Assembly: GCA_035528395.1 (NCBI GenBank)
Contig: DATKYR010000156.1
Span: 1-32,000, forward strand
Length of the DNA: 32,000 nucleotides
DNA from: Sedimentisphaerales bacterium
Lineage (GTDB): Bacteria > Planctomycetota > Phycisphaerae > Sedimentisphaerales > Anaerobacaceae
Direction: 5' to 3'
Part shown: in pieces, positions 1,320 through 30,223 of the stretch
Layout of the letters: each line of letters starts with the position of its first letter
How positions within the stretch are numbered: position 1 is the first letter of the stretch
The notes under the pieces: model-generated
Databases searched by the model: none
What the model was told of the DNA's origin: nothing
Seen by the model: the letters and a program-made list of their open reading frames with translations, nothing else
Position numbers and translations under genes: made by a program

Positions 1320-1328
1320 GCCAGCCTC

Positions 1329-2087: not shown

Positions 2088-2840
2088 CTAACGGGGCCAG
2101 TCTGTGCCTTTGATGCCTCGAACTGTCAGGTTTGCGTTGGGAAGCCCATCCCGAGCGGGTCGAATCTGTTTGGCTTTAAGGAAAAGAACCTGGCCGTCAA
2201 CGAAAAGATAATTCCTGCTGCCTTCCCAACACCACCACCCTTGGTCATCATTGATGGGTAAGTGACTGCTGAGCCATTCGCCGATAAGAATCTTGCCGGA
2301 GGGTTTGGCTACGTCCGTGTTTTTCTGTGGGATGGAGGGTTGAGGATTGGCGTAGGTGTCGGCAGGACTGTTCATATCGTCAATCTGCTCGGGGCTGTGG
2401 TAAAAGGCCATCGAGTAGGAGTAACTGGTGGACTCGTATTTGTCTTTTGCGATATGGTCCTGCGGACAGAACAGAACCGAAGGGTTATTAGCATCGATAT
2501 TGCCGCCTATATAAGGCTCGACAAGGAAGCGCCAGCCGCGACCCATCCACAGCCAGTAAGGCGGCTCCGTTGAGACAGGATCCTGGGCACAGGGATAAGT
2601 GTTGTCGTTTTCATTGAGATAGAAGCTCACGGCCAAGTCGATTTGCCTGAGGTTATGGGCGCACCTGAGGCGCATCGCCATAGACCTGGCTTTTCGAAGC
2701 GACGGCATAAGTATAGAGAGCAAAAGAGCGATGATTGCTATTACAACGAGCAGCTCTATAAGGGTAAATCCCGGTCGAAGTTTTTTAACAATCGAGCCGG
2801 AACAAGGGCGGTCTGTATTGGATGTTTTGGATCTTATCAT
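2088..2840 (-). CDS. Prepilin-type N-terminal cleavage/methylation-domain protein (DUF1559-like pseudopilin-like protein)
   Basis: Contains [25 protein letters not shown], a class III signal with a hydrophobic helix. The C-terminal NYLFVDGQV resembles the DUF1559 terminal motif. I start it at the ATG at 2840 (MIRSK...) because the longer ORF to 2951 would overlap the glmS 3' end. It begins 13 nt downstream of the glmS stop. Confidence 0.8.
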
Positions 2841-2853
2841 CAAGCGAGACAGT

Positions 2854-6334: not shown

Positions 6335-7008
6335 AGATATAAATAGTCTCATGGGTGGCACGCTCAAAATCTTTTTGGGCGTGCTCTTATGTAGCAGGGA
6401 AACTGTCAAAATCTATTGGCATCTGTCCACAGCCCGTGCCCTGCCAGTCTCTGATGCTGGAATAATACCATTGCTCAGCAGAAGCGACCAGTTCTCGCCG
6501 AACCGGATTGTTATGAATATACCTTACAGCATTTATGATTGTCTGGGGCGATGTGATGTTTCTGTCATATCCACCGCCAGACTGCCAAAAATGATAAGGC
6601 CTATTTTTCTGTCCGGTAGCAAGTGACTTCAACCCATTCGGATTATGTTTTTTAAGGTATATAATAGCCTTGCGCGAAACAGATTGTTTTATGGAAAGTA
6701 ATATCTGCGATATCGAATAGTCTGGCTTTCGCGGGCATATAAGAAGATGCGCATGTTCGGGCATAAATACATAAGCCCATAAATCAAAATCATACTTTTC
6801 TCTGGCCTGAACAATGGAATCAGTCAAATATTGACAGATTCTGTCACTTGACAAAAACGCACGATTACGATAACAACTAAACGTTAATTCGTGCGCGTGA
6901 CCGGGGAAATTATAGCGACGACATCTTTTTCGATGTACCCCTTCGGTATCCATGCCCGTATCATATCAGCTCAACCACCTCCAAACAAGTTTGAAGGTGC
7001 CACCCGTT
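6335..7008 (-). mobile_element. IS200/RAYT-type Y1-transposase unit with subterminal hairpins and a 9-bp terminal inverted motif
   Basis: Begins 6 nt after the hisF stop. GGGTGGCAC at 6353-6361 is inverted relative to GTGCCACCC at 6997-7005. Left hairpin: gcacgc/gcgtgc within 6358-6384. Right hairpin: cacctccaaac/gtttgaaggtg within 6975-6999. Both ends recur in the mini-copy at 7069-7217. Confidence 0.7.
6387..6953 (-). CDS. Y1 (HUH) tyrosine transposase, REP-associated (RAYT)/IS200-like
   Basis: 188 aa. HUH motif in FMPEHAHLLI and the catalytic Tyr context RYIHNNPVRRELV, the typical Y1_Tnp layout. Confidence 0.85.
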   Translation of the reverse strand: MDTEGVHRKRCRRYNFPGHAHELTFSCYRNRAFLSSDRICQYLTDSIVQAREKYDFDLWAYVFMPEHAHLLICPRKPDYSISQILLSIKQSVSRKAIIYLKKHNPNGLKSLATGQKNRPYHFWQSGGGYDRNITSPQTIINAVRYIHNNPVRRELVASAEQWYYSSIRDWQGTGCGQMPIDFDSFPAT

Positions 7009-13871: not shown

Positions 13872-14267
13872 ATGCTTGATAGATCCGAGTTAAAAAAGAT
13901 TGCCCAAGCGAGAATCGAAGATGGTAAAGTTTTGCTCAGTTCGAACTGCTACGATGGAGCTGTTTATCTGTGTGGTTATGCAGTCGAGATAGCTCTGAAA
14001 GAAAGGATATGTAGGACTTTAGGTTGGCCTGGATACCCCTCAACGAGGCGGGAATTTGCCAACTACCAGAGTTTCAGAACTCATAATTTGGGCGTGTTGC
14101 TTAGTCTTTCGGGAAGCGAACAGAAGATTAAGACGAACTTCCTCGCTGAGTGGTCGGTGGTGGCCGAATGGGATCCTGAAATGCGTTATAAACCAATCGG
14201 AAGTGCAAATAAACAAGAGGCTGAATTGATGATTGATTCATCAAGAAAACTGTTGAGTGTATTATGA
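13872..14267 (+). CDS. HEPN-domain protein (classical HEPN, putative toxin/RNase-like component)
   Basis: 131 aa. AQARIEDGKVLLSSNCYDGAVYLCGYAVEIALKERI is the helix pair with the A.E.aLK pattern. FRTHNLGVLLSL matches the tHdL..Ll pattern and EMRYKP the aRYp pattern. Confidence 0.65.
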   Translation: MLDRSELKKIAQARIEDGKVLLSSNCYDGAVYLCGYAVEIALKERICRTLGWPGYPSTRREFANYQSFRTHNLGVLLSLSGSEQKIKTNFLAEWSVVAEWDPEMRYKPIGSANKQEAELMIDSSRKLLSVL

Positions 14268-14662
14268 AAAAAGAAACACGGGAAAAATTAGCTTTGCTTG
14301 AGCGAGAAGTATCCGGCGAAAAAGGTGAGTTTTCTCTATTCGGGCTGTTTCTCCGGGAAGATGCTCAAGACGAGGATAAGTGGGATATTCTTGTATCGGC
14401 ACTCTGGCTGGACGCTGATAAGAAGGAAGGTTTAGCGTATTTGGCAAAGGAGATTCAGGAACGGCTCGAGCCTGACGAGCTTCTGTCTATTTCAAGGATT
14501 GTGGTGTTGGAGAGAGGCGATCCGATATTAGAATCCATCCACAAAGCTGTAAACGTGAAACACGGTAAGGTCGAGGTGAAGGATAGTAACTTCTCTGGAG
14601 TTCAAATAACTCAGGCTTGCATAAGTACGTCCTCTGCTGTGAATCCAACAGTGAAACATTAA
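14264..14662 (+). CDS. HEPN-partner protein, possibly a degenerate minimal-nucleotidyltransferase (MNT)-like fold
   Basis: 132 aa with an ATGA overlap onto the HEPN gene. FSLFGLFLREDAQDEDKWDILVSA mirrors the MNT pattern hLFGS.aRGe....SDiDLlV. However, the GS is replaced by GL and DxD by WDI. Confidence 0.5.
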   Translation: MKKETREKLALLEREVSGEKGEFSLFGLFLREDAQDEDKWDILVSALWLDADKKEGLAYLAKEIQERLEPDELLSISRIVVLERGDPILESIHKAVNVKHGKVEVKDSNFSGVQITQACISTSSAVNPTVKH

Positions 14663-14673
14663 CACATTATTAC

Positions 14674-17259
14674 TTATGCTATTTTCTCGAAAGTGAATTT
14701 ATGGGCGTCTGCGTTGATTTTTATATTGTCGCCGTCGGCGAATTTTCCGGCTAAGAGCTCGGCGGCCAGGGGGTTTTCCAGCCGCTGCTGAATCGTCCGT
14801 TTCAAGGGCCTTGCGCCAAAGACGGGGTCGTAGCCCTCATCCATAATCAAATCGCGGGCACTGTCTGTGAATTCGAGTTTTATGTTACGGCTGTTGAGGC
14901 GCTTTGCCAGGTAATCCAGTTGGATATCGACAATCTGCCGCAGGTGCTCTTTATTGAGTATGTGGAAGACGATTATCTCATCGACGCGGTTCAAAAACTC
15001 CGGCTTAAAGAGCTGCTTGAGCGCATCCTTAACGTGGGCCTCGATTTCCCAGTCGGCGCCGGATTCCTCGGTCAACTGCTGAATCTGATGGCTGGCGATG
15101 TTGCTGGTCATAATTATAACGGTGTTCTTGAAATCGACGGTTCGTCCTTTTCCATCGGTCAATCGGCCATCATCGAAAACCTGCAGCAGCACATTGAAAA
15201 CGTCCGGATGGGCCTTTTCAATCTCATCCAACAAAATCACCGAGTAGGGCTTACGGCGAACGGCTTCTGTCAATCGTCCGCCCTCTTCGTAGCCGACATA
15301 GCCGGGCGGCGAGCCGATAAGCCGGGCGACGGAGTGCTGCTCCATAAACTCGCTCATATCGACCCGTACCATAGAGTGCGGGTCATTGAAGAGAAAGTCC
15401 GCAAGGGCTTTGGAAAGCTCTGTCTTGCCGACTCCGGTGGGGCCGAGGAATAAAAATGTACCTATGGGCCGGTTCGGGTCTCCCAAGCCCGACCGGCTCC
15501 TTCGAACCGCATTGCAAAGTGCTGTGACAGCTTCATCCTGCCCCACTACAAGCCGGCGAATGGATTCTTCCATTTTGAGCAGGCGCTCGCGCTCGCCGCT
15601 CAGCAATCGCGCCACCGGTATCCCCGTCCATTTGGATACAACTCCGGCGATGTGCTCTTCGGTCACTTCGTTACGAATCATTTTGCTTCTATCGGATTTG
15701 GCAAATTGAGCTTCTTTTTCTGTAAGCTCTTTTTTCAGATTCGCAATAGTTTCATATTTTAGCCGTGCGGCGGTTTCCAATTGGCCCTTGCGCTGGGCAT
15801 CTTCAAATTGATTTTTCGCCTCTTCAATTTTTTCTTTCAGTTGTTTTATCTGGTCAATTTCACCTTTTTCACTTTCCCATTGTGTTGTAAGCTCTTTGTC
15901 CTTCTTTTGCAATTCCGCCAGTTGCTTTTCAGTATTTTTTAATCGTTCTTTACTGGCATTGTCGCTTTCCTTTTTCAGGGCTTCACGTTCAATCTGGAGC
16001 TGAATAATTTTTCTGCGAATACCGTCAAGCTCGGCCGGCAGTGAGTCGTTTTCAATTCGCAGTTTCGAGGCCGACTCGTCGATCAAATCTATCGCCTTGT
16101 CCGGCAGCCAGCGGTCGGTAATATAGCGGTTTGACAAAGTCGCAGCCGCGACGAGGGCAGCATCGGTTATCCGCACACCGTGATGGGTGTCGTACCGGCC
16201 TTTTAGGCCTCGAAGGATGGCTATGGTTTCTTCGACGCTCGGCGGGTCAATAAGAATCGGCTGAAAACGCCTCTCAAGCGCAGCGTCTTTTTCGACATAC
16301 TTTCGATAATCGTCGATAGTAGTCGCTCCAATACAACGCAGATCGCCCCGTGCAAGAGATGGCTTTAGCAAATTACCGGCATCGACCGCACCTTCAGCTT
16401 TGCCCGCGCCTACTACCGTATGTAATTCGTCGATGAAGAGTATTATCTGCCCTTCAGCAGTGATGACCTCTTTGAGGACGGCTTTGAGCCGGTTCTCAAA
16501 TTCACCCCTGAATTTTGTGCCTGCAATCAGCGCTCCCATATCCAGGGCAATGATTCTTTTGTTCTTCAAACATGTGGGGACATCGCCCGCAATTATCCGT
16601 TGAGCGAGGCCTTCGACGATTGCGGTTTTGCCGACGCCCGGCTCGCCTATTAGTACAGGATTATTTTTCGTTCGGCGGTTGAGGACCTGCATACATCGCC
16701 GAATCTCTTCATCTCTGCCGATGACCGGGTCGAGCTTTCCCTTGCGAGCCATCTCCAAAAGGTCAATCCCATAGCGCTCCAGAGCTTTGTATTTATCCTC
16801 CGGATTCTGGTCGGTTATCTTTTCCGGCCCGCGAATTTCTTTAATGGCGTTTTCAACTTGTTCGGGTGTTATTGAGTTGAGCCGGAGAATCTCTTTCGCA
16901 TCACTTTGTACCGAAGTTAGTGCTATTAGCAGATGCTCCACGCTCAAGTATTCGTCGCCCATTGCATCAGCCCTGTTTTGGGCATCCAGAACAACCTGGC
17001 TGAAAGCCGGGTCGGGCATAAGCTGATTACCACTGCTGCCCTGCGGCAGCCGCCCAAGCTCGCTCTCGGTCATCTCCCTAATTCGCGGGACATTGGCGCC
17101 TATCTTTTTCAAAATCTCAACCGCAATGCCGCTGTCCTCGCCGCAAACCGTGCCTAATAGATGCAATGGTGACGTAACAGTATGCGACTTGGCCATCGCG
17201 AGCTGCTGAGCAGTTGCCAATGCCTCCTGGGCTTTTAGTGTGAATTTGTCGAATTTCAT
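14674..17259 (-). CDS. clpB: ATP-dependent chaperone/disaggregase ClpB
   Basis: 861 aa. Clp N-domain, two AAA+ modules (GEPGVGKTA and GPTGVGKTE Walker A motifs), and a long coiled-coil M-domain between them. Confidence 0.97.
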
Positions 17260-17672: not shown

Positions 17673-18089
17673 TTACTCAATACCGACCCAACCTGTTCTC
17701 ACGTTATAAATGAAGTTACCTCTCAGACGAGTACTGATGTACACACTATCACCATTGATGGCAAAAACAGCTTGCAGCGTTTTGTCTATCTTGATTTGTG
17801 CTGCTCCTGACCGGGATAGTGCGTCGTGAAGGTCTGTTCCATATTGCAGAATCTGATTATCGGAAAAGCCCGCTCGTCGCATTACTCGTACAATGTCATC
17901 GGAGCTTAAAGTGAGTACCTCCTGGTGGTTCAATGGTATGACCTCAAAACCTCTTTGAGCACAACTAACCACACCCAAAGCCAGAAGCGCCAGCAACAAT
18001 GACACAATAATCACACCACTGCCATTAATTCTTTTTTTGCGACTAATCGGCTTCACAGCTCTTTTATCTCCTTTTAATATGTTTTTCAT
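17673..18089 (-). CDS. Lipoprotein translationally coupled to the secretin (pilotin candidate)
   Basis: 138 aa. Basic N-region, a hydrophobic helix and the lipobox LGVVSC. Its ATG (18089) overlaps the secretin stop at 18086-18088 (ATGA). Confidence 0.6.
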   Translation of the reverse strand: MKNILKGDKRAVKPISRKKRINGSGVIIVSLLLALLALGVVSCAQRGFEVIPLNHQEVLTLSSDDIVRVMRRAGFSDNQILQYGTDLHDALSRSGAAQIKIDKTLQAVFAINGDSVYISTRLRGNFIYNVRTGWVGIE

Positions 18090-21000
18090 CTCATCGGGCG
18101 CGATAAACTTTCCCGAAGACTCGTCTTAAAATCTCCACCCATCGATCTTATCGGAGGCTGAATTGCAGGCGTCTGAGGTTGGGCGAAATCGAGGGGTCGG
18201 CTTGACTCCGGAATTATGTTTGCCGTGACGAAGACAGCGATTTCCCTGCTGGACTCAACGTTGTTTTTATTTTTAAACAGTCCTCCCACGAGCGGAAGAT
18301 TACTGAGGCCAGGGGTGCGTCTCTTCTCCAAACGCGTTCGGTTCTCCATCAGGCCGGCCAGTGCAACTGTTCCGCCGTTATGAATGCGTACCGTGTTAGA
18401 GGATGTACGCCGCGTAACAACCGGAAGGTCACTTCCTCTACCGCGAGGTATGCTGTCACTGACCTCGATGGCCATCTCAAGTGTAATATCATTATTGTCC
18501 CCGATGTGGGGTGTGATACTTAACCTGGTGCCGGACTCAATTTTCTCCAGTTCAGAACGGGTGTAGTAGAAGCTGGCTTCCCCCGAGGTCATCATATAGT
18601 ACTCTTCGGTCATGACATTGATTTCTGCCACCTTGCCGTCTTGAGCCAACACCTGAGGTTTAGCCAGTATGGTAGCCTCATCATTCTGAGCGAGCAGGTT
18701 CAGCGCTAATGACAGTGAATTGGTAAATGTTGCGTCGGGCGTATAGCCAATTTGGAGACCCGACGCCGTTTTGCCGCCGAAGTCAACCATCCCCGAGGTC
18801 CCGCGTCCAAAGAGCTGATTTGTGAAAAGTCCGGCGTTAATCGTGGGCCAACTCCACTCGACACCCATGTTCAGTAGGTCACCGCGTTCCATTACCACAA
18901 CCCGCGCATCCAGGAGTACCTGGGAGCGGTGTCGGTCGATTTTCTTCATGTCTGAGACGATACGCTCCATCAAAACCGGCGGAGCTGTAACAACCACTGT
19001 GTAGGTGTCGGTCCCGGGCCGGCCAATTTCGGCCTGAACGTAAGCCTGGAAAGGAGTGGATAAAAGTCCCACTGCTGCCTGAGACGTGATGTAGTTCAGT
19101 TTTATCCGGCGTGTTTCACTCACAACCGGGAACAACGCACTTGTTGGGTCCCCTGAACAAACCAAATAATAATACGGTGTCTTCTTGACAACATAAGGAG
19201 TGCCGGCCAGGACAATCTCGAGGGCCCTGTCAAGCGGCACATTTTCAAGAGTGCAGGTTACCGCCCCTATGACGGTCTCATCGGGGATAATAGTAACGCC
19301 CGCCATTGATGCAATGTCCTGAAGCGCCCCAGCGACATCCGCATCAACCCAGACATTGCTGATAAGCGGTTCTTGAGGAGCAAGCAGGTTTGGCTCTTCC
19401 GGAGCTTCCCGCGTGATCAGAAGGTTTTCCAATTGTGCTCGAATCTTGGCAATATCCCTCTCTAAAGGTGTTTTCGGCTCCTCCTCAACCGCAGGAGCTG
19501 GCGTAGGCGTAATGGTGGCCTCCGTCCCAGGAGGCATTTTCCACTCAGGGGCTTCCGGCACAATGGCCGTGGGCCCAAGAGGTGTCGTTGCAGTAGGTGT
19601 CGGCGCAGGAATAGGGGGTATCGGCTCGGATATGCGCGGCGCAGGACGCCTTGCCGATTCCGGCAAATCATCCCTATAGTTCTCCGTAATGTTAGTGTAT
19701 GACTTACTCGGGAACTCGAAACCTTCTTTTGAAAGTGTAATCTCACCGCTCCAATCATATGGCACTTCAATAATGAATCTGCCCCTGGAGTCGGTGATAC
19801 CGGTGCCTCCGCCATTATTTGCTGCGACCTTTACACCTTCGATAGGTGTTCCGCCGACCATAACCGCACTGGAGATGGTGAACGTCCGCAGTATCGCAGA
19901 ATATTCCTGATTTGTCTGGTCCTTGGTAACAACAGGGTACGGTTTATTAGTCGGCCTGAATGTATAACCTACCTTTGTCGGTGTTATTTTGCCGCGCCAG
20001 CCGTAATCCACCGTCAATTCGTACTCGCCGTTAGCATTGGTTGTCGTGGAACCTCCGCCAGCGTCTGCTAATAAAAATACCTCTTCGACCGTTTCGCCCT
20101 TGTCAGAGCGTATCATACCAGAGATGGTTTGCTTCAACAATGTTGCGATGTAGTTCTGGTCATACTCAGGGCCGAAAAGTGCAGGATATTGTGTCTCAGA
20201 CGGGTCAAAGTTATAACCTGGCTTTGTCGGCCTGACCGTGCCGTCCCAGCCGTACTTAACGACGGCGCTGTAAGTGCCGTCCTCATTACTAATAACGGCT
20301 TTACCCGGAAGACCTTTTATTACCGCAGAGTCTGTTCCAACAGAACCGCTAATCGTAAAGGTAATCTCTTTAGAAGTGTAGTTCTGGCTCTTCTGGTCTT
20401 CGCTAATGAGACTGTATACGTTACTGGGCGGGGTGAACTCGTAACCTTCTTTTATGGGCGTAACCATACCGCTCCAGCCATAGTCAACAGTGGCACTGTA
20501 CGAGCCGCCTGCACCGGTATTCGGATCATCAGGCAGGCCATCCATTGTTACGCCGTCCGTACCAACGGTACCGGAGATGGTTAATGTAATCATTGTCGGA
20601 CTGAAATCCTGATTGGTCCGTTCGCTGGTAAGTTTAGTGTAGTTAATCGTAGCCGGTTTAAAAGTCCAACCTGCCTTTACCGGCTTGACCGTCCCGTCCC
20701 AGCCGTATTCAATGCTGGCACTGTAATATCCGCTGACATCGGTAAAAACAGCAGCGCCCGGCAGACCCTGCATTTCCACACCGTCCATACCAGCCGTGCC
20801 GGATATAGTAAAGGTCATCACATTCGCAGTGTAATCCTGATTGGCTTGAACACCGATAAGGTCACTGTATGGCATTTCTGCCGGCTCAAAGGTATAACCA
20901 TCCTTTGTCGGGCTGACCGTGCCGCTCCAGCCGTATTCAACCGCGGCGCTGTAAGTGCCGTTCACACCGGAAGTCGGATTACCCGGCAGACCGTTCATTA

Positions 21001-21613
21001 CTACACCCTCCACCACTCCGGCGGAACCGGAAATTGTAAAGGTAATCAGTGTACCTCTATAGTCCTGATTCATCTGGTTCCTGGTAACAGCAGAGTATGG
21101 CTTACTGGTTGGCGTGAAGATGTAACCAACCTTCGTTGGCGTAACCGTACCGCTCCAGTCGTAGTCCACGATGGCCCTGTAAGTGCCGTCGCTGCCGGTA
21201 ATCGGACTACCCGGCAGACCCTCCATTACTACACCTTCCATACGGGTTGTACCCGAAATAACAAAGGTCTCCAGCGTTGCCGTATAATCCTGATTACTTT
21301 GGTCGCTGGTAACTTTGGGGTAGGGTCTGTTAGCTGGTTCGAAGGTGTAACCCGCCTTTACGGGTGTAACTGTACCGCTCCAGCCGTATTTAACGGCGTC
21401 ACTATAATTGCCGTTCTCGTCGGTAACAGGATTGTTCGGCAGACCTTGCATAGTCACGCCGCTAAGCCCTGGTACTGAACCGGAGATGGTGTAAGTTATC
21501 GCTTTGCCTTCGATCGCTGCCTGGACGCTGATATTCAACGCGCAGAGCAAAATTAGCACGCAGAGGACAATTACGCCGTCCGATAAAACTCTACCAATGT
21601 TTTTCCTTGCCAT
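18086..21613 (-). CDS. Giant secretin-family outer-membrane channel with eight N-terminal beta-sandwich-type repeats and a Pro-rich linker
   Basis: The C-terminal ~300 aa carry the secretin signature: QVLAQDGKVAEINV..., LPVVTRRTSSNTVRIHNGGTVALAGL, and TPGLSNLPLVGGLFKNKNNVESSREIAVFVTANII. A Secretin_N-like segment is present (VWVDADVAGALQDIASMAGVTIIPDETVIGAVTCTLENVPLDRALEIVL). There is a signal/anchor at the N-terminus. Confidence 0.9.
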   Translation of the reverse strand: MARKNIGRVLSDGVIVLCVLILLCALNISVQAAIEGKAITYTISGSVPGLSGVTMQGLPNNPVTDENGNYSDAVKYGWSGTVTPVKAGYTFEPANRPYPKVTSDQSNQDYTATLETFVISGTTRMEGVVMEGLPGSPITGSDGTYRAIVDYDWSGTVTPTKVGYIFTPTSKPYSAVTRNQMNQDYRGTLITFTISGSAGVVEGVVMNGLPGNPTSGVNGTYSAAVEYGWSGTVSPTKDGYTFEPAEMPYSDLIGVQANQDYTANVMTFTISGTAGMDGVEMQGLPGAAVFTDVSGYYSASIEYGWDGTVKPVKAGWTFKPATINYTKLTSERTNQDFSPTMITLTISGTVGTDGVTMDGLPDDPNTGAGGSYSATVDYGWSGMVTPIKEGYEFTPPSNVYSLISEDQKSQNYTSKEITFTISGSVGTDSAVIKGLPGKAVISNEDGTYSAVVKYGWDGTVRPTKPGYNFDPSETQYPALFGPEYDQNYIATLLKQTISGMIRSDKGETVEEVFLLADAGGGSTTTNANGEYELTVDYGWRGKITPTKVGYTFRPTNKPYPVVTKDQTNQEYSAILRTFTISSAVMVGGTPIEGVKVAANNGGGTGITDSRGRFIIEVPYDWSGEITLSKEGFEFPSKSYTNITENYRDDLPESARRPAPRISEPIPPIPAPTPTATTPLGPTAIVPEAPEWKMPPGTEATITPTPAPAVEEEPKTPLERDIAKIRAQLENLLITREAPEEPNLLAPQEPLISNVWVDADVAGALQDIASMAGVTIIPDETVIGAVTCTLENVPLDRALEIVLAGTPYVVKKTPYYYLVCSGDPTSALFPVVSETRRIKLNYITSQAAVGLLSTPFQAYVQAEIGRPGTDTYTVVVTAPPVLMERIVSDMKKIDRHRSQVLLDARVVVMERGDLLNMGVEWSWPTINAGLFTNQLFGRGTSGMVDFGGKTASGLQIGYTPDATFTNSLSLALNLLAQNDEATILAKPQVLAQDGKVAEINVMTEEYYMMTSGEASFYYTRSELEKIESGTRLSITPHIGDNNDITLEMAIEVSDSIPRGRGSDLPVVTRRTSSNTVRIHNGGTVALAGLMENRTRLEKRRTPGLSNLPLVGGLFKNKNNVESSREIAVFVTANIIPESSRPLDFAQPQTPAIQPPIRSMGGDFKTSLRESLSRPMR
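19650..21496 (-). repeat. Eight tandem ~75-83-aa coding repeats within the secretin gene
   Basis: Unit pattern: TFTISG..G..GV.M.GLPG.P....G.Y.A.V.YGWSGTV.P.K.GY.F.P....Y......Q.NQDY. The 14-mer ccgctccagccgta and its variants begin at 21375, 21150, 20922, 20694, 20469, 20241, 19992 and 19746, a spacing of 225-249 nt. Confidence 0.9.
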
Positions 21614-21720
21614 AAGTCAATGTACCTTTCTGTAGCCATTAACCGGCAATACTACAGCTCCTTTGCCTTGTATCGGCAATTCAGCTTCTTTCTTTAGTAA
21701 AAAATCTCTTTGCCAGCACG

Positions 21721-23397
21721 CTACCATTGAACTGTTATTTTTTCTCCAAGCTCCTCTTCTAACTTCACAACTTCAACAATCTTCAGTTGCCCCTGGGGCA
21801 GAACCCGTATACCTATTTGTTTGGTTGCTACCTCCCCGGGAGCATATTCTAAAACCGCCGCAAGACGGTATGTACCCTCAGAAACATTTGAAAAATCGAT
21901 AATTCCAGAGAAATCCCTGACCTCAAGCGGCAGCATTAGATCTGATTTGCTGCTGCTGAGCGTTGTCAATGCTCTGGGCCTACCCGTTGGGTCTGCTGCG
22001 TCTACAACTGCAGCTCTGCACCTGATAGGGGTAAAGTGGATGCGTCCGAAATTACCGAACCGGGCGACAATATAATACTGTGAGCCCCCCTTGAGGGCGG
22101 GGCTTAGCTTCATTGCATGGACGAAAGGTTCGGCACTGACGCTATCGTCTGTAACACAAACATTTGCGGTTGTTACGCCGCCCTTCTGGCCGTCCGGATA
22201 AGTGCTGAACATACCAAGAAGCGCGTAATAACAGGGATACGCCACTGCAGATTTCGGCATCGTTGCAGTGACGCGTATGCTCTGCTGACTCATGCTGCGT
22301 AGTGTGAAACTCTCCGGCTCTATCTTCACCCACTCGGTGCAGTCCAAATCATCCCCCTTCAAGTCGCCGAAAGCTGTCCCCTGAAGATTACCCGGTAACG
22401 CCAAACCCGTTTGAATGTTGACCGTCTCATCCGAAGCGTTACGGATTCTTATCGCTGTCGTGCGTGTAGCCCCCGGCCGGCAATTTATGAGAACATTACT
22501 CGGCAGCACATCAAGCGGCGCATCGGTCGCGACCTTCTTGATGCTCGAGTCACCGGCAAAATTTAGCTCCTTTTCAATCCTTTTTGCACGCCGGCCGTCC
22601 ACATAAAGCACGCCGGATATCCTGTACTTCCCGGATGGCAGAGACCGCTCGATGTCATGTTTTAATTTGAATTCGGCCCCCGGGATGATACTGACACCTC
22701 TGAATTCCGCATCGGTAACTTCTCGCCAGTGCCCATCCAAGAAACCTCTTACTTTTGCGAAGGCCTTTAAGCGGGAATAGGTCCCGCCATTATTTGAAAT
22801 ATCCATTGAGACCATTGTTGTTGCAGGTTTGCCTCCAACGCTCTCAACAAGCTCCAGCCCGATTTTCTCAAGCTCTATATTGTGGCGCATTGGCCGACCC
22901 TGTACCTCAGCGAGAATGGGAACCAAAAATCGCAGGATCACAGTAATATCTGTTGCGTCGGGCCTGGCCCTAAGGGTGGCTAAAATCCCCGCAGTGTAAA
23001 ATCCACGGATACCAGGCGGCACCCTTAAAAACACTTCTACAGATTTTGCATCCATTGGGCCAAGATCAACACTCCCAGGTCTAAATCTTATCCATTCCTT
23101 GCACGAAGAAAGAGCTGATGTGTCAAAATCATCGTTGTTAGGATCCTCAAGAATTCGCCACTCACCATCCTCCCACTGGGTCAGCTCGACTACCGACAAA
23201 TCTATTGAGTGGGCTTCGTTAGGGTCGAGGCTTTGAAGGTCGAGGGTCGTCTTGAATATCCTACCGGGTCGGACCGCAAGATCCATCTTCATAGGCTGGA
23301 CTAAAAACTGGCCAAATGCAGGCCCAGCAGACGCAAGTACCGCTATTGCGATAACCAGGACTATATTATGGTTATGAACACCATTTTGCTTTCCCAC
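21721..23397 (-). CDS. Secreted protein with two tandem DUF916/DUF3324-like (CscA-type, Ig-like) modules
   Basis: Signal peptide ...IVLVIAIAVLASAGPAFG|QF. I prefer the GTG start at 23397, which sits 7 nt after GGGAGG. The ORF track starts at a TTG at 23412. By eye, the two halves repeat the same pattern of beta-strand-rich segments (see finding). Confidence 0.7.
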   Translation of the reverse strand: MGKQNGVHNHNIVLVIAIAVLASAGPAFGQFLVQPMKMDLAVRPGRIFKTTLDLQSLDPNEAHSIDLSVVELTQWEDGEWRILEDPNNDDFDTSALSSCKEWIRFRPGSVDLGPMDAKSVEVFLRVPPGIRGFYTAGILATLRARPDATDITVILRFLVPILAEVQGRPMRHNIELEKIGLELVESVGGKPATTMVSMDISNNGGTYSRLKAFAKVRGFLDGHWREVTDAEFRGVSIIPGAEFKLKHDIERSLPSGKYRISGVLYVDGRRAKRIEKELNFAGDSSIKKVATDAPLDVLPSNVLINCRPGATRTTAIRIRNASDETVNIQTGLALPGNLQGTAFGDLKGDDLDCTEWVKIEPESFTLRSMSQQSIRVTATMPKSAVAYPCYYALLGMFSTYPDGQKGGVTTANVCVTDDSVSAEPFVHAMKLSPALKGGSQYYIVARFGNFGRIHFTPIRCRAAVVDAADPTGRPRALTTLSSSKSDLMLPLEVRDFSGIIDFSNVSEGTYRLAAVLEYAPGEVATKQIGIRVLPQGQLKIVEVVKLEEELGEKITVQW

Positions 23398-23731
23398 TTT
23401 TTTTCCTCCCAAAAGCTGATTTCCACGAACCTATAACTCTTTGTTATGAAGTCGAATAATATTGAAAAGACAATTTTAAAGCTCCTCGTTCGTTCACCAT
23501 TCTGAGTTTATTATTGCATTTTTGTGGTAAATTTCCGCGATTATGCACCAATATTGAGTCTTTTACCTTTTCGGCAAATTAACATCTTTACTTTTTATAA
23601 ATCCTTGTAAAATCCCCACAAGCACTGCCAATCCCCAATTTTATGCAATTACAAGCCACTTAATACACCCTCGCTTGATAACGACATTTACACTTACTTT
23701 CCCTTCCTATGCCTGCGTTCAATTATTACCA

Positions 23732-23760
23732 AGTTTAACACTTTCCAGTCTGGATGTCAA
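23732..23760 (-). promoter_or_regulatory. Sigma70-like promoter TTGACA-N17-TAAACT upstream of the 560-aa/secretin/lipoprotein genes
   Basis: On the plus strand, tgtcaa at 23755-23760 and agttta at 23732-23737 are separated by 17 nt. This would give a ~330-nt leader. Confidence 0.35.
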
Positions 23761-23802
23761 GTATAATTTGCCCAAAACGCCCAAATTAACAAAAATGTTT
23801 GT

Positions 23803-23844
23803 AAAAATTTAGGGAGGGGCAGATTTTACATCCGTCCCTCCCTA
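23803..23844 (-). terminator. Intrinsic terminator after the 202-aa secreted-protein gene
   Basis: Perfect 9-bp G/C-rich stem: tagggaggg 23810-23818 with ccctcccta 23836-23844. On the minus strand it is followed by AATTTTTAC. It lies ~50 nt downstream of the stop at 23895. Confidence 0.6.
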
Positions 23845-23894
23845 TATCAACATCTACATACTTTCCTAACAATCACACCTGTAGGGGATTAAGT

Positions 23895-24503
23895 CTATTG
23901 AGGAGCTGTCGGACCACCTCCCTGCCAGGTACCTTCCCACGACGCATAGGATTGGTCGGGTTTAACAGTTATCCAAAGATCTGCAACGTGAATCTCGTCA
24001 CCCTGCGCACCGGCATCCCAGATCTGGATATCCCAGGCCTTGATACAAACCTTACGCGTGTGCCATTGGCCGTTACCGGGGACTACACTGGGGTTAAGAC
24101 CCTCAGCAGCTTCGTAATAGACCTTCTCCTTGTCGGCTCCCCACCAGGAGACCTTATTCTCAACCTTGCCGCCCAATTTTGCATCAAAGTTGGCCCTTAC
24201 CTTAATCTCCTCGCAATCACGGTAGCACGGGAAGTCTTCTGTGGCGCTCTTGGGGTATGGATCTAATCCATCGTTACAGGGTACCTGTTTTAGCTTGATC
24301 TTATAGTCCGCGCACTTCTCCAATTGTACATAGTAACCCACATCCATAAGTATAGGTATAGAACATACGGGCACATATATGTACTCATAGGGCCACATAC
24401 CGTCAAACTTCTGCATGTTTTTTCCAGGGTCCACCGCTTGGACCGAGGCTGTCAGGAAAGCTACAACTGCAATCGTAAATAAAATTTTCTTTACCATTTT
24501 CAT
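23895..24503 (-). CDS. Small secreted Cys-rich protein with a WxL-like C-terminal strand (putative surface or fibre subunit)
   Basis: 202 aa. Signal peptide MKMVKKILFTIAVVAFLTASVQA|V and six Cys. The C-terminal part is ...GDEIHVADLWITVKPDQ.... RBS GAGAGGGAA is present. An alternative ATG lies at 24497. Confidence 0.7.
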   Translation of the reverse strand: MKMVKKILFTIAVVAFLTASVQAVDPGKNMQKFDGMWPYEYIYVPVCSIPILMDVGYYVQLEKCADYKIKLKQVPCNDGLDPYPKSATEDFPCYRDCEEIKVRANFDAKLGGKVENKVSWWGADKEKVYYEAAEGLNPSVVPGNGQWHTRKVCIKAWDIQIWDAGAQGDEIHVADLWITVKPDQSYASWEGTWQGGGPTAPQ

Positions 24504-24943
24504 TTCCCTCTCAATTCTTATTGCTCCTTAAATGCCTTTATTGGCCTGTGGAGCTAATTCAGTTCCTTCGCCCAGGCCCAACGAATGCCTGAGCCACACA
24601 ATCAGCGGGCTGAATTTTTTTGCCGACTCCTGCAAATTTGCCCGCTTTACTGCCTGAGTCGTGGCCCCTAATAATACGATTCAAATCTGCGATTTTTAGT
24701 CCCAGTTATCAATCGTTTTACCGCCTCAAGACCGGGCCTGGTTCTTCAGGCGGCTCGCAAGCATCCTTTCGCTCGCGAGTTGTCACTTTTCACTACCTCA
24801 CACCTCCTTTCTCCCCTACCCTTTTCAAGGAAGGGGCTTTCGTTCGTTTTTTGGATAATGTCTATCCACAAACCCTGGGCATATTTAATCAACTAATTAT
24901 TACGCAGTTAAGTCCTCCTCTTTTTCATCACTATCTTCTCCAA

Positions 24944-25471
24944 TTAATGCGGTGGCGGCATTACCGTAAATGTAAGAGCTCCTGTGTATCTTCCCGCATA
25001 GTCGAAGTGAGTGGCCTGCAGCTTGAAATTCAACTCAATGTTATGTGAGCCGGTTTCCGGCTCCGATATAACCACCGGTTTTGCCATTCTGGTATATTCT
25101 TCTTTCATTATCGGCGCATTTATCAAAATGCGCTCAGGCTGTATGGTGAAGCCTTTGGAATGCTTAAGCGCCGTCACTGAGGCTACAATCGGGCCGTGCA
25201 GACAGTTAGATTCCACATGCACCGTTAACGACGCTGCCGCCGAGCGATAGATGCTTGGAAACATAGCATGTCCAGGTCCTAAAATGGGGTCTGCAAATGT
25301 AGGCCTGTCAAAATCAAGTACGTTCGATGTGGTGGATATGCTGACGAATGGGCCAGTATCCGGCTGGATAGTAAATGTGCCGGAGAGCGGGCCAGAATCC
25401 GCCTGGGCAATACCAGCCAGCCCGAGCATAACCATAATAGTTGTCCAAGTTATTACTACTAACTTTTTCAT
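24944..25471 (-). CDS. Small secreted beta-rich protein with a fimbrial-subunit/WxL-like C-terminus
   Basis: Start set at MKKLVV (ATG at 25471), preceded by GGGGGGAGAA. Signal peptide ...MLGLAGIAQA|D. The protein ends ...HNIELNFKLQATHFDYAGRYTGALTFTVMPPPH. Confidence 0.7.
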   Translation of the reverse strand: MKKLVVITWTTIMVMLGLAGIAQADSGPLSGTFTIQPDTGPFVSISTTSNVLDFDRPTFADPILGPGHAMFPSIYRSAAASLTVHVESNCLHGPIVASVTALKHSKGFTIQPERILINAPIMKEEYTRMAKPVVISEPETGSHNIELNFKLQATHFDYAGRYTGALTFTVMPPPH

Positions 25472-25832
25472 AGCGTTCTCCCCCCAAAAACTACTTTCAA
25501 AAAATAATTTTTCTGCCGCCAAAGGGCAGCAGCAAGCCCAACTTTTTTACCGGATTTAAGACGCTTCGTTTTGCTTTTGTTGTCTCGGCACCTACTACAT
25601 TAGTGCCGTCCTTTATATTAGCTACGCAGCGTCTCCTCATCACTTGGCTAAGTTTTGCAAGACGGGCCGAAAGCGGGGATATAAAGAAAGGACGTATGTG
25701 ATGTCATTTCATCTCTCCTCATCATCACTCTCCTCACTCCCGGCTTGGCACCAAAGACAGATTAGCGCCGGACAAGCAAAGCCTCAAGTACAAATAAAAC
25801 GAACATCATAAGTAAGCCTTGCTAACTTGCCG

Positions 25833-25861
25833 AATTTAACATTTTTCTTTCTGTATGTCAA
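25833..25861 (-). promoter_or_regulatory. Sigma70-like promoter TTGACA-N17-TAAATT upstream of the 175-aa gene
   Basis: On the plus strand, tgtcaa at 25856-25861 and aattta at 25833-25838 are separated by 17 nt. It has the same architecture as the site at 23732-23760 and would give a ~350-nt leader. Confidence 0.35.
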
Positions 25862-26517
25862 TAGCTAAATTCTAAAAATTAGCTTTTTTTTACTGTTTTT
25901 GCTCATTAACTCATTTTCATTATTCTACCCAATCTCACCTATAATGTCAACGGTTATTTTACCTATTTTTCCGCATTTAGCTATTTCCTCTATTTTTTAG
26001 GACCCTAATCCTCTCCGGCCAACCTGTACCAGACGAGTCAGCCAATCCTCAAGTTTATGTAAGGTTTTGTAAAATAAGGAGATACAACACAAAATATATA
26101 GTCATAATTGCATTTCGGTTGCTGGCAGGACTTGTGAAGTCTTCCAATATGCACAATCGGTCACAAAAAAAATTTTTGCATCGTTTACCTTTATTTTGAA
26201 CAGATTGAGCAATATCTTTTGATGAATTTACTATTCCCTGCCGCAGAGTCAAATCCCTGTGAATAAAGGTTTTTTTTGAGTTGGTTTCACTCGAACAGTC
26301 TTTTAAATAGATGTGCATCTCTGCGATTAAGCTTGGCCCCCGGTTCAGACGCAGCTAAATTTAAGCCTGTGTTTGAGTGTCTATGATTCTTATCAATTGT
26401 TATTTGTGTTCGCAGGCAAAAATGGGTTTATCGTTCTGAGCAATACGGTTTACGCAATTTGCTCTTATAGTCAGTTTTACAGGTCTAATTCACACCAAAA
26501 GCTCGCCTTTAATCTTC

Positions 26518-26546: not shown

Positions 26547-26614
26547 GGACGAAAATTTGTCTGAAATGCGTTTTTCTTTCAGGACATTATGAGGTCCTAC
26601 AAAAACAGGGATTT

Positions 26615-26688
26615 GCGCTCGTAGCTCAGTTGGACAGAGCAACGGATTTCTAATCCGTAGGTCGCAGGTTCGAGTCCTGCCGGGCGTG
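26615..26688 (+). tRNA. tRNA-Arg (anticodon UCU)
   Basis: Manual cloverleaf. Acceptor gcgctcg/cgggcgt with two G-U pairs. D arm gctc-agttggaca-gagc. Anticodon arm acgga-tttCTaa... with loop TTTCTAA, giving anticodon TCT. Variable loop aggtc. T arm gcagg-ttcgagt-cctgc. No encoded CCA. Confidence 0.93.
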
Positions 26689-26692
26689 TTAT

Positions 26693-28246
26693 ATGAGCCG
26701 AGAAATAATCGCCATCCTGGACTTTGGCAGCCAGTACGGTCAACTGATAGCACGCAGGGTTCGCGAACAGAATGTATATTCCCAAATTTGCCGGGCGGAT
26801 ATAACGGCGGAAGAATTATCACGAATGGGTGTTAGGGGATTGATATTGTCCGGCGGGCCTGCAAGTGTCTATGATAAAAATGCACCAAAATGTGATGAGA
26901 AAATCTTTGAATTGGGTGTGCCGATTTTGGGTATCTGCTATGGAATGCAGTTAGGCTGTCAGATTTTAGGTGCAAAAGTTATTGCTGCCCAAAGACGTGA
27001 GTACGGGCGAACAACTTTGTCCATTCTTGATAAAAGCGATTTGTTTGCAAATCTGCCGGATTCAATCACGGCCTGGGCCAGCCACGGCGACCAGCTCGCC
27101 CCCGCAAGTATCAAGCGGGGGGATGATTTCGTCAAATTGGCGACCACTGATACCTGCCCCTTTGCAGCAGTAAGGCACAAGAGGAGGAAATTTTTCGGCG
27201 TTCAGTTCCACCCCGAGGTCTCACATACGCCCAAAGGAACGCTGATTTTGAAAAACTTCCTGTACGATATCTGCGGCTGCAGCGGCGACTGGAAAATGAG
27301 TGACTTTGTCAGTGAAACCGTAGAAGCAGTTCGCAGTCAGGCAGGCGAGGCCAAAGTGATATGCGGGCTGAGCGGCGGCGTTGATTCGTCCGTTGTGGCT
27401 TCGTTGGTTCATAAGGCGATAGGCGACCAGCTTGTTTGTATTTTCGTTGATAACGGGCTGCTGCGAAAGAATGAACGCGAAAATGTCGTATCCACCTTCC
27501 GGAACCATTTTCATATGGATTTGCGGGTAGTTGATTGGTCTCAGCAGTTTTTATCGGGATTGACTGGCGTGACCGACCCCCAGCAAAAACGAAAGATTAT
27601 CGGCTCTGAGTTTATCAAGGCCTTTGAGTCGCAGGCTCTGAAAATTCCGAATGCCAGGTTCCTGGCCCAGGGAACGCTGTATCCTGATGTTATCGAGTCA
27701 GGCTCAAAGGACGGTAATCCCGCCGCGAATATCAAATTGCATCACAATGTAGGGGGGCTGCCGGCCGAGATGGGCTTTGAGCTGATTGAGCCGTTGCGGG
27801 ATTTGTTTAAGGACGAGGTGCGGGTCGTCGGCGAATATCTGGGACTGCCGGAGGATATCGTCTGGCGCCATCCTTTCCCCGGACCAGGCCTGGCCGTCAG
27901 GGTAGTTGGAGAGGTGACACCCCAACGGCTGGAAATCCTCCGGGCCGCTGATGAAATCTTAATAGATGAAATAAAATCGGCAAGGCTGTACAGAAAGATA
28001 TCACAGGCCCTGGTGGTGTTGATACCTGTCTTAACGGTCGGGGTGATGGGCGATGAGCGGAGCTATGAAAACGTCATTGCTATTCGTGCCGTTGAGACCA
28101 TTGATTTTATGACCGCTGATTTTTCGCAAATTCCCTACGAGGTGCTTGGCATCATATCCAGCAGGATTATAAATGAGGTCAGGGGCGTCAATCGGGTCGT
28201 TTATGATATATCCAGCAAGCCGCCAGCGACAATCGAATGGGAGTAG
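26693..28246 (+). CDS. guaA: GMP synthase (glutamine-hydrolysing)
   Basis: 517 aa. [34 protein letters not shown] (the ATP-PPase P-loop) and the C-terminal ...KPPATIEWE. Confidence 0.97.
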
Positions 28247-28342: not shown

Positions 28343-30223
28343 ATGTTGGGCGTTAGAATCCTACACCTTATAAAAACAGCTCTGGAACACCGGTATTTTC
28401 CGGCGGTCTTAGCTGGTGTCACTGTTATAATTATGCTTCCTGCTCTTAAGGCGGGTTTCATACAGGACGACCTGGTCCACCGGGCAAAACTTCTTGAACC
28501 TTCCGAGCTGCCGGAGCGGTTCTATGATATTCGTCTGAGTCCGCCGGACTCCGGCACACTGTCGGGGGCACTTCGTGACATGTACGCTATTGTTTCCACA
28601 AAGCGTGACCATGAGGCGTTCAAGGATTTTGGTTTGTTACCCTGGTGGACGGCTGAGGATTTTCGAGGTTCGAATTGGCGGCCGCTGACCGCCTTTACCC
28701 ACTGGCTCGATTACCAACTGTATCCGAACTCGCCGGTGCTGATGCACGCACATAGTATTATCTGGTTTGCAGCGGTTATATTTATGGTGGCTGTTTTGTA
28801 CCGGAAGCTGCTGGGGCCCGTGTGGATAGCGGGCCTGGCGGCGTTGCTTTATATGATTGATGACAGCAACTATTTCCCGGTAATGTGGATAGCGAACAGA
28901 AATTTGCTGCTGTCGTTGTTTTTCTCGATTCTTACTCTGCTGATGTATCATCGCTGGCGGCAGCAAAAATCCGTATATGCCGGCGTTGCGGTTCCTTTTC
29001 TGTTATTATTGTCTTTATTGTCCACCGAAGCAGGTATCGCCACTTTTGCCTACCTTTTCGCTTACGCCCTTATCATCGACAGGGGAAGTTTGCGGCGGCG
29101 GGCCTTGAGTTTAGCTCCGAGTTTTATCGTGATAGTCATCTGGCGGCTTATCTACAATGCACTGGATTATGGCGCCCGGGGCAGCGGTTTTATTATCGAT
29201 CCCGGGAGCGAGCCTTTGCGTTATGCCTGGGCGGTGGTCAAGCGGGCGCCGGTTCTTCTTTCCGGCCAGTGGGGCTGGCAGCCTGCGGAGATGTTCAGCC
29301 TATTCTCCGACTATGCCAGGAGATGGAATTTACTCACGGCCTGCGTATTCCTGCTTTTGCTCCTGATTGTATTTTTACCACTGCTGCGTAAGAACCGTGT
29401 TGCGTTATTCTGGTTCACCGGGATGATGCTTTGCATTCTTCCAATTTGCGCGACCAGCCCGATGAATCGCAATCTTCTCTTCGCCGCCATCGGAGCTTTC
29501 GGGTTAACCGCACAGTTCATCGGCGGATTGTTCCTCAAAGAGAGCTGGATCCCAAAAACCAGATATTGGCTCGTTCCCGCCTGGATAGTTTGTGTGACTT
29601 TACTATTCATACATATAGTTATTACCGCGGGGACAAGGGTTATTGTGCCAAAAAGGATTTCCTCCATTTTCAATATTTTTTATTCGACTGTTGATGTGGG
29701 CTCGCAGCCTGATATTGAGAATAAAACCGTGGTAGTGGTCAACGCACCCCATCCGTTTCTGTTTTTAGCCATGCCGGTTATGAGGGCCGATGAGGACAAA
29801 CCTTTACCTGAAAGGACCCGCGTTTTGGCTCCCGGGTTTGTGCCGCTGGAAATTACCCGCACCGGAGAAAAAACGCTGTTGCTTAAGGCCCAAACCGGCA
29901 ATATTCTGTTACCTGATACTTCCCGGAAAGATTTTAAGCTGCACTTTGTTTATTTCTATAAAGAATTTAACAGTCTTTTTCGGCCCGAAGACCTGCCGTT
30001 TCGGGCGGGTGAGCGGGTCGAGCTGACCGGGATGTCGGTTGAAGTCATCGGTGTGGATGAAGCCGGTCAGCCGACGCAGGTTCAATTCCACTTTGCCGTT
30101 TCTTTAGACAACCCCTCTCTGAGCTGGTTGCAGTGGGACTGGAAAAAGGGCCGTTTCGGTTCATATTCTACCTTCGAGTTGCCGGCAGTCGGCGAAAAAG
30201 CCTATATACAAGGACCGTTTTAG
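28343..30223 (+). CDS. Large polytopic membrane protein (possibly a GT-C-type glycosyltransferase; function uncertain)
   Basis: 626 aa with about 10 or more hydrophobic segments in the first ~450 aa. An acidic DD motif (GFIQDDLVH) follows the first helix. The C-terminal ~170 aa look like a soluble domain. Confidence 0.7.
   Translation: MLGVRILHLIKTALEHRYFPAVLAGVTVIIMLPALKAGFIQDDLVHRAKLLEPSELPERFYDIRLSPPDSGTLSGALRDMYAIVSTKRDHEAFKDFGLLPWWTAEDFRGSNWRPLTAFTHWLDYQLYPNSPVLMHAHSIIWFAAVIFMVAVLYRKLLGPVWIAGLAALLYMIDDSNYFPVMWIANRNLLLSLFFSILTLLMYHRWRQQKSVYAGVAVPFLLLLSLLSTEAGIATFAYLFAYALIIDRGSLRRRALSLAPSFIVIVIWRLIYNALDYGARGSGFIIDPGSEPLRYAWAVVKRAPVLLSGQWGWQPAEMFSLFSDYARRWNLLTACVFLLLLLIVFLPLLRKNRVALFWFTGMMLCILPICATSPMNRNLLFAAIGAFGLTAQFIGGLFLKESWIPKTRYWLVPAWIVCVTLLFIHIVITAGTRVIVPKRISSIFNIFYSTVDVGSQPDIENKTVVVVNAPHPFLFLAMPVMRADEDKPLPERTRVLAPGFVPLEITRTGEKTLLLKAQTGNILLPDTSRKDFKLHFVYFYKEFNSLFRPEDLPFRAGERVELTGMSVEVIGVDEAGQPTQVQFHFAVSLDNPSLSWLQWDWKKGRFGSYSTFELPAVGEKAYIQGPF

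Follow-up and report, generated by a model that had tools for sequence, protein, structure and literature searches.

A secretin locus of a Sedimentisphaerales bacterium encodes a candidate chaperone-like/secretin envelope module for small beta-sandwich proteins

The 32,000-nt stretch of DNA analyzed here (the window; positions 1 to 32,000 of contig DATKYR010000156.1 of a Sedimentisphaerales bacterium) carries on its minus strand five genes, for two small secreted proteins (p175 and p202), a larger protein with immunoglobulin (Ig)-like domains (p558), a secretin and a lipoprotein, which may constitute a self-contained chaperone-like/secretin envelope module that exports or assembles small beta-sandwich proteins at the cell surface. 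We give this reading a probability of about 0.45. Secretins are known as the outer-membrane ports of the type II secretion system (T2SS), of type IV, Tad and Com pili (T4P/Tad/Com) and of the type III secretion system (T3SS), which are ATP-driven, and of filamentous phages. The module is made of known parts, and it fits no described secretin system, nor the definition of a chaperone-usher system or of a WxL cluster. In the literature, no paper was found that links DUF916 (the WxLIP_PGBD family) to secretins or to diderms, or that describes the module; the DUF916 papers found deal with Gram-positive bacteria, or mention the domain in passing. The occurrence of a motorless secretin together with a chaperone-like Ig protein across several phylum-level lineages, as given by record labels, points to another use of secretins, which, if true, would represent a new principle of outer-membrane export or assembly. 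It also provides a first diderm context for DUF916/WxLIP proteins and supports a chaperone-like function for them. Since the module is present in cultured Rhodosalinus isolates, it is directly testable.

The five genes and their order are conserved

The locus comes from a metagenomic contig of 64 kb (ENA ERZ27256828 k141_1882671) with identical copies in JGI and Logan assemblies, and the record labels of its close homologues are Sedimentisphaerales, Phycisphaerae or Planctomycetota. An earlier note, made from the letters of the window, had described five minus-strand open reading frames (ORFs) here, and all of them were found where it had placed them. The first is p175 (24944..25471, ATG at 25471), a Sec-signal protein with an Ig-like beta-sandwich, which belongs to the core of the module and may be an exported or a fibre subunit; a longer TTG ORF from 25522 and the start used in public gene calls, which gives 163 aa, are alternatives. 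It is followed by p202 (23895..24503), a Sec-signal protein and lineage-specific small secreted partner that contains exactly the six Cys claimed for it, and by p558 (21721..23397), a Sec-signal periplasmic protein with four Ig-like domains. The signal-peptide protein of about 560 aa that had been announced is thus 558 aa long; its most plausible start is the GTG at 23397, with GGAGG just before it, and the public gene calls also give 558 aa. The alternative TTG at 23412 would give 563 aa, and an exact database look-up of this version returned no match. The secretin (18086..21613) and the lipoprotein (17673..18089, 138 aa, with a lipobox-like VVSC↓A) complete the set, the ATG of the latter overlapping the stop codon of the former as ATGA.

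The order p175, p202 (in one or two copies), p558, secretin and lipoprotein was kept in all the related genomes compared at the species level (19/19). This synteny holds down to 39% identity in p558, and in the three genomes that diverge most the genes on either side are other ones. The earlier note had held that its proposal would be refuted if the five genes were not co-conserved; they are co-conserved, and therefore the arrangement is not a rearrangement artefact. The idea that these genes came together by chance or through misassembly, or that they are the decayed remnant of a filamentous phage or mobile element, draws on the fact that filamentous phages encode secretins and on the IS200-like gene and toxin-antitoxin pairs present in the window. 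It is effectively refuted by the synteny data, i.e., by an order kept in the 19 species and in several phylum-level lineages (record labels), and further by the presence of the same arrangement in independent ENA, JGI and Logan assemblies, by conserved regulatory DNA, by the lack of phage genes, and by a match to the phage secretin pIV that is much weaker than the match to GspD.

A profile search with p558 that covered 1.84 billion representative proteins returned 875 clusters at 50% identity (E<=1e-3), 227 of them at E<=1e-30. The clusters listed were mostly full-length, and the 46 members that were aligned reach down to 25% identity. Named members came from Planctomycetota, from an Armatimonadota metagenome-assembled genome (MAG), from an Acidobacteriota-labelled MAG and from three cultured Rhodosalinus isolates (Alphaproteobacteria). 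Twelve distant loci had enough flank to be read (L028, L029, L031, L032, L033, L035, L036, L038, L041, L042, L044 and L046), and in 12/12 of them a secretin adjoins the p558-like gene. The lipoprotein family follows the secretin in L029, L033, L036, L038, L041 and L046, and one to seven small signal-peptide proteins, of families that otherwise have no annotation, are encoded upstream in L029, L032, L035, L036, L041, L042, L044 and L046. Proteins of the p175 family were found in L021, L023, L024, L027, L030, L044 and L046. From this gene content it follows that the core of the module consists of a p175-like protein, a p558-like protein, the secretin and the lipoprotein, and that the small paralogues are variable.

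The labels of the near-syntenic loci L007-L025 are inconsistent ('uncultured Pirellulales', 'Candidatus Aegiribacteria', Sedimentisphaerales), and in L042, which is labelled Acidobacteriota, the N_methyl/SBP_bac_10 neighbour is of a kind typical of planctomycetes. Some of the MAGs are probably mislabelled, and the phylum breadth is that of the record labels; the Rhodosalinus isolates are secure. A tblastn search with a Rhodosalinus homologue against plasmids gave no match, and one candidate family member, L026 (Lachnospiraceae), was discarded as a false positive, being a phage integrase.

p558 resembles WxLIP proteins and PapD-type chaperones

The AlphaFold2 (AF2) model of p558 has a mean predicted local distance difference test (pLDDT) score of 63.6, with domains 1, 2 and 4 confident. 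When this model was searched with Foldseek, the top PDB matches were the Enterococcus faecium WxLIP structures 9i1y and 9i25 (E 4e-12 to 1e-11), which show the protein both free and in complex with a long WxL protein, with target template-modelling (TM) scores of 0.62-0.67 over about 250 aligned columns. The next matches were the chaperones CsuC, CfaA, Caf1M, FimC and PapD (E 1e-8 to 1e-6, target TM ~0.5). The confident domains 1 and 2 of p558 have the WxLIP fold, i.e., two perpendicular Ig-like domains. In Pfam, p558 itself gave sub-threshold matches only, to Big_14 (aa 192-261) and to WxLIP_PGBD (DUF916, PF06030; aa 306-384). Among its relatives, DUF916 was matched by 12 of the 20 close and 12 of the 46 distant ones (best E 2e-9), and one relative is named 'DUF916 domain-containing protein' by NCBI. 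Both the structural matches and the matches in relatives bear out the likeness to CscA/WxLIP proteins that the earlier note had seen by eye.

DUF3324 (PF11797) is missing both from the full list of Pfam matches of p558 and from the 13 families listed for each alignment of its relatives, and domain 2 matches Big_14, not DUF3324. A C-terminal transmembrane helix is lacking in p558, which ends in ...KLEEELGEKITVQW without a hydrophobic segment, and the AF2 model has strands throughout this end. Neither PapD_N nor PapD_C was matched in Pfam by p558 or its relatives; one JGI homologue carries the name 'P pilus assembly chaperone PapD'. Nothing useful came from searching the PDB with p558, whether by sequence or by profile. 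An internal duplication, with domains 1-2 repeated as domains 3-4, was considered, and is not established since hhalign gave a probability of at most 31%.

The secretin, its lipoprotein and the lack of linked motor genes

The 1175-aa protein is a secretin, as had been proposed: Pfam Secretin (PF00263; cut-off 27.5 bits) matches aa 974-1134 with a score of 121.5 bits (E=3.5e-35). It is composed of a signal peptide, eight repeats, a Pro-rich linker, probable STN/N0-like and N domains, and the secretin domain. The STN score of the window protein (17.7 bits) is below the 28.4 cut-off and Secretin_N was not matched, and the orthologous secretins of L029 and L036 pass both. The N-terminal extension (19679..21502, minus strand; aa ~38-645) is made up of eight CarboxypepD_reg-like repeats of ~75 aa each. 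The secretins of the distant loci have 451-594 aa, with STN/N0, Secretin_N and Secretin domains and without the repeats, and the eight extra repeats may be an adaptation to a wide planctomycete periplasm.

The lipoprotein has an invariant Cys, and its family lies beside the secretin in 24 loci, Rhodosalinus included. It represents a new family and a candidate pilotin, a role suggested by its position, its translational coupling to the secretin and its co-conservation.

The main rival to a self-contained module is that the secretin and the lipoprotein are the outer-membrane end of a T2SS/T4P-like machine encoded elsewhere, with p558 and the small proteins as cargo or as accessory periplasmic factors. 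GspD and PilQ are indeed the best-scoring matches of the secretin domain, and the PDB structures of both match the protein at 1e-28 to 1e-20, only over its C-terminal ~270 aa. T2SS/T4P genes are scattered in Planctomycetes genomes, and no described secretin is known to work without such machinery. A pilin-like gene with an N_methyl motif is present far off in the window (2088-2951), as the earlier note had indicated, and another N_methyl gene adjoins the module in L042. However, the secretin is far below the NCBIfam cut-offs of GspD (141.9 vs 351), PilQ (132.6 vs 284), MshL (99 vs 250) and SctC (93.5 vs 238), and likewise below that of HofQ. A search of the window, in agreement with the earlier note, and of ~52 kb of the source contig revealed no ATPase of the GspE/PilB type, GspF/PilC platform, PilMNOP, prepilin peptidase, T3SS gene or phage gene. 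The same note had named a secretin consistently adjacent to canonical T2SS/T4P genes in relatives as an outcome that would overturn its proposal, and no such adjacency was found: in ~31 loci from Planctomycetota-, Armatimonadota- and Acidobacteriota-labelled MAGs and from Rhodosalinus, with flanks of up to 10 kb on each side, there was no T2SS/T4P ATPase, platform, PilMNOP or GspC-M gene, and no prepilin peptidase gene was linked in any locus. The invariant neighbour of the secretin is instead a p558-like gene, usually with the lipoprotein gene as well, and the genes on either side are unrelated housekeeping genes, which vary from lineage to lineage. An usher gene was also absent from every locus, the outer-membrane component being the secretin. 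On this balance, which covers these loci and ~52 kb of the source contig, we regard a machine encoded in trans as unlikely.

The small secreted proteins: an Ig-like sandwich, variable paralogues and no WxL match

The core of the p175 model is predicted with pLDDT above 90 and forms an Ig-like sandwich. Among the weak Foldseek matches listed for it are subunits of donor-strand fibres (TasA, the PapG pilin domain, CfaB, FimG, CsuA/B and Caf1), and glycoside hydrolases and integrins are interleaved with them at similar scores. The earlier note had called both small proteins WxL-like, and this claim was not supported: neither p175 nor p202 matched WxL, SCPU or DUF4402 in Pfam, no WxL chain was among the 50 Foldseek matches listed for p175, and the WxL family of Pfam was matched by none of 31 p175 relatives. 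No match was obtained for p175 in Pfam, NCBIfam or sequence and profile searches of the PDB. Thirty small neighbours from other lineages were equally without a match in Pfam and NCBIfam, and a broad alignment of the small proteins found nothing in the PDB.

Kinship between p175 and p202 was undetectable in profile comparisons. When a common origin of the small-protein families was examined, the probabilities of 90-96% obtained with signal peptides fell to 2-65% without them, and the high values were rejected as signal-peptide artefacts. The p202 gene is duplicated in six species (L014, L017, L018, L019, L022 and L025); the second copy comes with a CTTGACAT promoter motif of its own in at least 4 of the 6 and with its own half of the leader described below in 6/6. 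The p202 protein appears to be the Sedimentisphaerales-specific version of variable small secreted paralogues.

Promoter-like sites, leaders and a structured RNA

Two TTGACA-N17 sites that the earlier note had listed were both present. The first (TTGACA-N17-TAAATT, TG-extended; 25833..25861, minus strand) lies upstream of p175, and its -35 hexamer is kept in 14 species and its -10 only moderately. The second (TTGACA-N17-TAAACT, TG-extended; 23732..23760, minus strand) precedes the p558-secretin-lipoprotein unit and is kept in 9/9 aligned species, with a nearly invariant -10 hexamer. A further site upstream (TTGACA-N17-TAGAAT; 25922..25950, minus strand) has 11/12 consensus matches, with both hexamers kept in 14/14 aligned species, and the motif CTTGACAT precedes p558 in nearly all loci, the distant L021 and L023 included. 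Regionwide, promoter-like sites are not enriched (13 found vs 12.0 ± 3.5 in shuffled sequence), so that it is not their count but their conservation across species, with the -35 TTGACA in all 9-14 aligned, that makes these sites credible. An imperfect palindrome, AGCTAA(T/A)T-N6-ATTTAGCT (25863-25884, minus strand), abuts the -35 of the site at 25861; its right arm, ATTTAGCT, is kept in 14 aligned species, and it could be an operator for some regulator.

Between p175 and p202 lies a conserved structured RNA (24504..24943, minus strand), for which a scan of the region against Rfam gave no match besides the tRNA. The 440 nt had been described in the earlier note as a non-coding spacer, and a spacer it is; the sequence is not inert, as it is conserved above the level of the flanking genes. 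RNAalifold predicted 77 pairs, with 95.7% of the cells paired, and 13 pairs showed compensatory change vs 7.7 ± 1.6 in shuffles (0/500); slid-control alignments collapsed. The element was also detected by nhmmer between the p175-like and p202-like genes of the divergent loci L021, L023 and L024. Its 3′ half (~190 nt) is found upstream of every second p202 copy as well, and since this half travels with each extra copy, the element is the p202 leader. A wider and more divergent alignment of the 3′ half gave 15 pairs only in RNAalifold. The RNA contains an invariant AGCUCC with two possible partners, the upstream GGAGGUG or a GGAGC near the ribosome-binding site, and one may speculate that these alternative pairings act as a translational switch. 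The covarying leader is a separate, uncharacterised element, and, if the reading is true, a new structured leader RNA of ~440 nt would control the expression of subunits in this clade.

The position of the promoter suggests that the ~360 nt upstream of p175 (25472..25832, minus strand), which contain conserved blocks in a 14-species alignment, are also a 5′ leader. The ~330-nt 5′ leader of p558 (23398..23731, minus strand) has conserved blocks such as AAAGTAAAGATGTTAA and CCGAAAAGGTAAAAG. Since the p175 and p558 leaders are long and conserved, all three transcription starts carry long conserved untranslated RNA. An intrinsic terminator follows p202 (23803..23844, minus strand). Its hairpin of -23.7 kcal/mol and its T-run, which the earlier note had judged strong, were both recovered and are conserved across species; a simple terminator scan did not list this hairpin. 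The subunit genes would be served by promoters of their own, by long structured leaders and by a strong terminator, with the machinery genes as a second transcription unit, and this layout fits the split between subunit and machinery genes.

The layout also bears on a second alternative, in which the small proteins would not be exported; instead they and p558, with its 'peptidoglycan-binding' type of domain (DUF916), would build a peptidoglycan-anchored, envelope-spanning scaffold under a secretin pore for the uptake or passage of other substances, for example polymers or DNA. In this clade the secretin has the eight extra periplasmic repeats, as if to span a wide periplasm, and the DNA-uptake porin HofQ is among the STN-type secretins; furthermore, peptidoglycan binding has been proposed for the DUF916 of Firmicutes, in which WxL proteins are associated with peptidoglycan (PMC10599100). 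Nevertheless, small-protein genes with their own promoters upstream of a machinery unit are the typical layout for structural subunits, and the up to seven tandem, diversifying small paralogues (~146 aa) found upstream of the p558-like gene of L032 (2910-6444) suit surface-exposed subunits better. The strong terminator after the small-protein genes was seen in Sedimentisphaerales-type loci only. No uptake-related gene is linked to the module, and we consider such a scaffold improbable.

Neighbouring genes

The module is flanked by clpB (14674-17259) on one side and by tRNA-Arg (26614-26689) and guaA (26693-28246) on the other, as had been stated. Between guaA and ruvB, a 626-aa ORF (28343-30223, plus strand) is present in public gene calls and has no Pfam domain. 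On the other side of the module, a pair of small genes that overlap (131 and 132 aa; ~13872-14662, plus strand) lies between an FGE-sulfatase gene and clpB; one of them has a faint HEPN match, and the pair may be a HEPN-type toxin-antitoxin system. A DarTG-type toxin-antitoxin pair (189-1925, minus strand) is formed by a gene for DarT, a single-stranded DNA thymidine ADP-ribosyltransferase, and an adjacent Macro-domain gene. A Y1/IS200-like transposase gene (6387-6953, minus strand) lies amid housekeeping genes (hisH/hisF, glmS and glnA).

A possible route for the small proteins

Edge-strand complementation is established for PapD-type chaperones. For WxLIP, the prediction is that one of its strands inserts into the sandwich of the WxL protein and completes it (PMC10599100). 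In the self-contained module that we favour, the small beta-sandwich proteins would enter the periplasm via Sec, p175 being the conserved one and p202 and the other paralogues the variable ones. There p558 would capture them at an exposed beta-sheet edge, which it would complete or cap, as with WxLIP and WxL proteins or PapD and pilins, and would then pass them to its dedicated secretin, whose insertion or stability in the outer membrane would be aided by the co-translated lipoprotein as a candidate pilotin. Folding or strand exchange, and not a cytoplasmic ATPase, would power the passage through the secretin and perhaps polymerisation at the surface. Gene content and order, folds and families, co-conservation and the lack of T2SS/T4P genes nearby are observations; that p558 is a chaperone for the small proteins, that these leave through the secretin, that the lipoprotein is a pilotin and that no ATP is needed is what we infer.

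Several points weigh against this route. The absence of motor genes holds at the scale of the locus, and an ATPase or platform may be encoded elsewhere in the genome. To our knowledge, every secretin described so far has a gate that an ATP-driven pilus, needle or phage opens, and we know of no precedent for an ATPase-free route through a secretin. The DUF916 score of p558 itself (15.1 bits) is below the 27.3 cut-off of Pfam, and domain 3, which is the Pfam DUF916 region, was modelled with pLDDT below 50. The Foldseek matches listed for p175 are weak (E about 1e-3 to 1e-2, TM 0.3-0.46), and p202 had no match in Pfam, NCBIfam or PDB sequence searches, with no fold assigned. The lipoprotein, likewise, has no relative in Pfam, NCBIfam or the PDB and resembles no known pilotin.

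It is tentatively conceivable that the module stands for a widespread, ATPase-independent 'chaperone-secretin' pathway of diderms, in which a WxLIP/PapD-like protein would feed donor-strand-type subunits through a secretin, thereby building surface fibres or adhesins. If true, this pathway would be the diderm counterpart, and possibly an evolutionary relative, of the WxL/Csc surface clusters of Gram-positive bacteria.

Comparison with known systems

The module shares with the secretin-pilotin pairs of T2SS and T4P (GspD-GspS/AspS, PilQ-PilF/Tgl) a true secretin domain, with probable STN/N0-like and N domains, and a small lipoprotein that adjoins the secretin. In contrast to them, its secretin is below the cut-off of every NCBIfam subfamily and in this clade has eight CarboxypepD_reg-like repeats, and in none of the module loci is it linked to a gene for GspC-M, PilMNOP, an ATPase, a platform or a prepilin peptidase. 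Its lipoprotein is unrelated by sequence to the known pilotins (GspS/AspS, MxiM and PilF/PilW/Tgl). The TasA/TapA fibres of Bacillus provide another point of likeness, as TasA is the top Foldseek match of p175, although a weak one (E 8.7e-4, TM ~0.3), and TapA is reported to act as a strand-complementing chaperone (PMC10151520). The TasA/TapA system, however, is monoderm, has no secretin and shows no relationship by sequence.

WxLIP proteins consist of DUF916, DUF3324 and a transmembrane helix, and are encoded in clusters with WxL proteins in Lactobacillales and Bacillales (PMC10599100), a WxL cluster being defined by at least one WxLIP plus two WxL proteins. As in these WxL/Csc clusters, the gene for an Ig-like protein has genes for several small, Sec-dependent, beta-rich proteins next to it; the best structural match of p558 is WxLIP, with a DUF916 signal across the p558 family, and the proposed logic, in which the Ig-like protein would complete the sandwich of its partner, is the same. 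Unlike the WxLIP proteins, p558 belongs to a diderm host, has four Ig domains instead of two, and is without a DUF3324 match or a transmembrane anchor; its partners are without a WxL domain, as judged by Pfam and, for p175, also by Foldseek. Moreover, the module always comes with a secretin and usually with a lipoprotein, a combination that is impossible in the monoderm clusters.

Chaperone-usher pili resemble the module in that the two-domain Ig-like fold of p558 matches their chaperones and p175 weakly resembles their subunits. They need no ATPase, and in both the subunit genes come first, with a terminator before the machinery genes. They differ from it in that the outer-membrane component of the module is a secretin and not an usher, and in that p558, which lacks PapD_N and PapD_C, is twice as long as a chaperone; the likeness to their subunits is weak, and donor-strand exchange would be hypothetical here. 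By analogy, then, the module would work most like a chaperone-usher or WxLIP-WxL system in which a secretin serves as the outer-membrane port.

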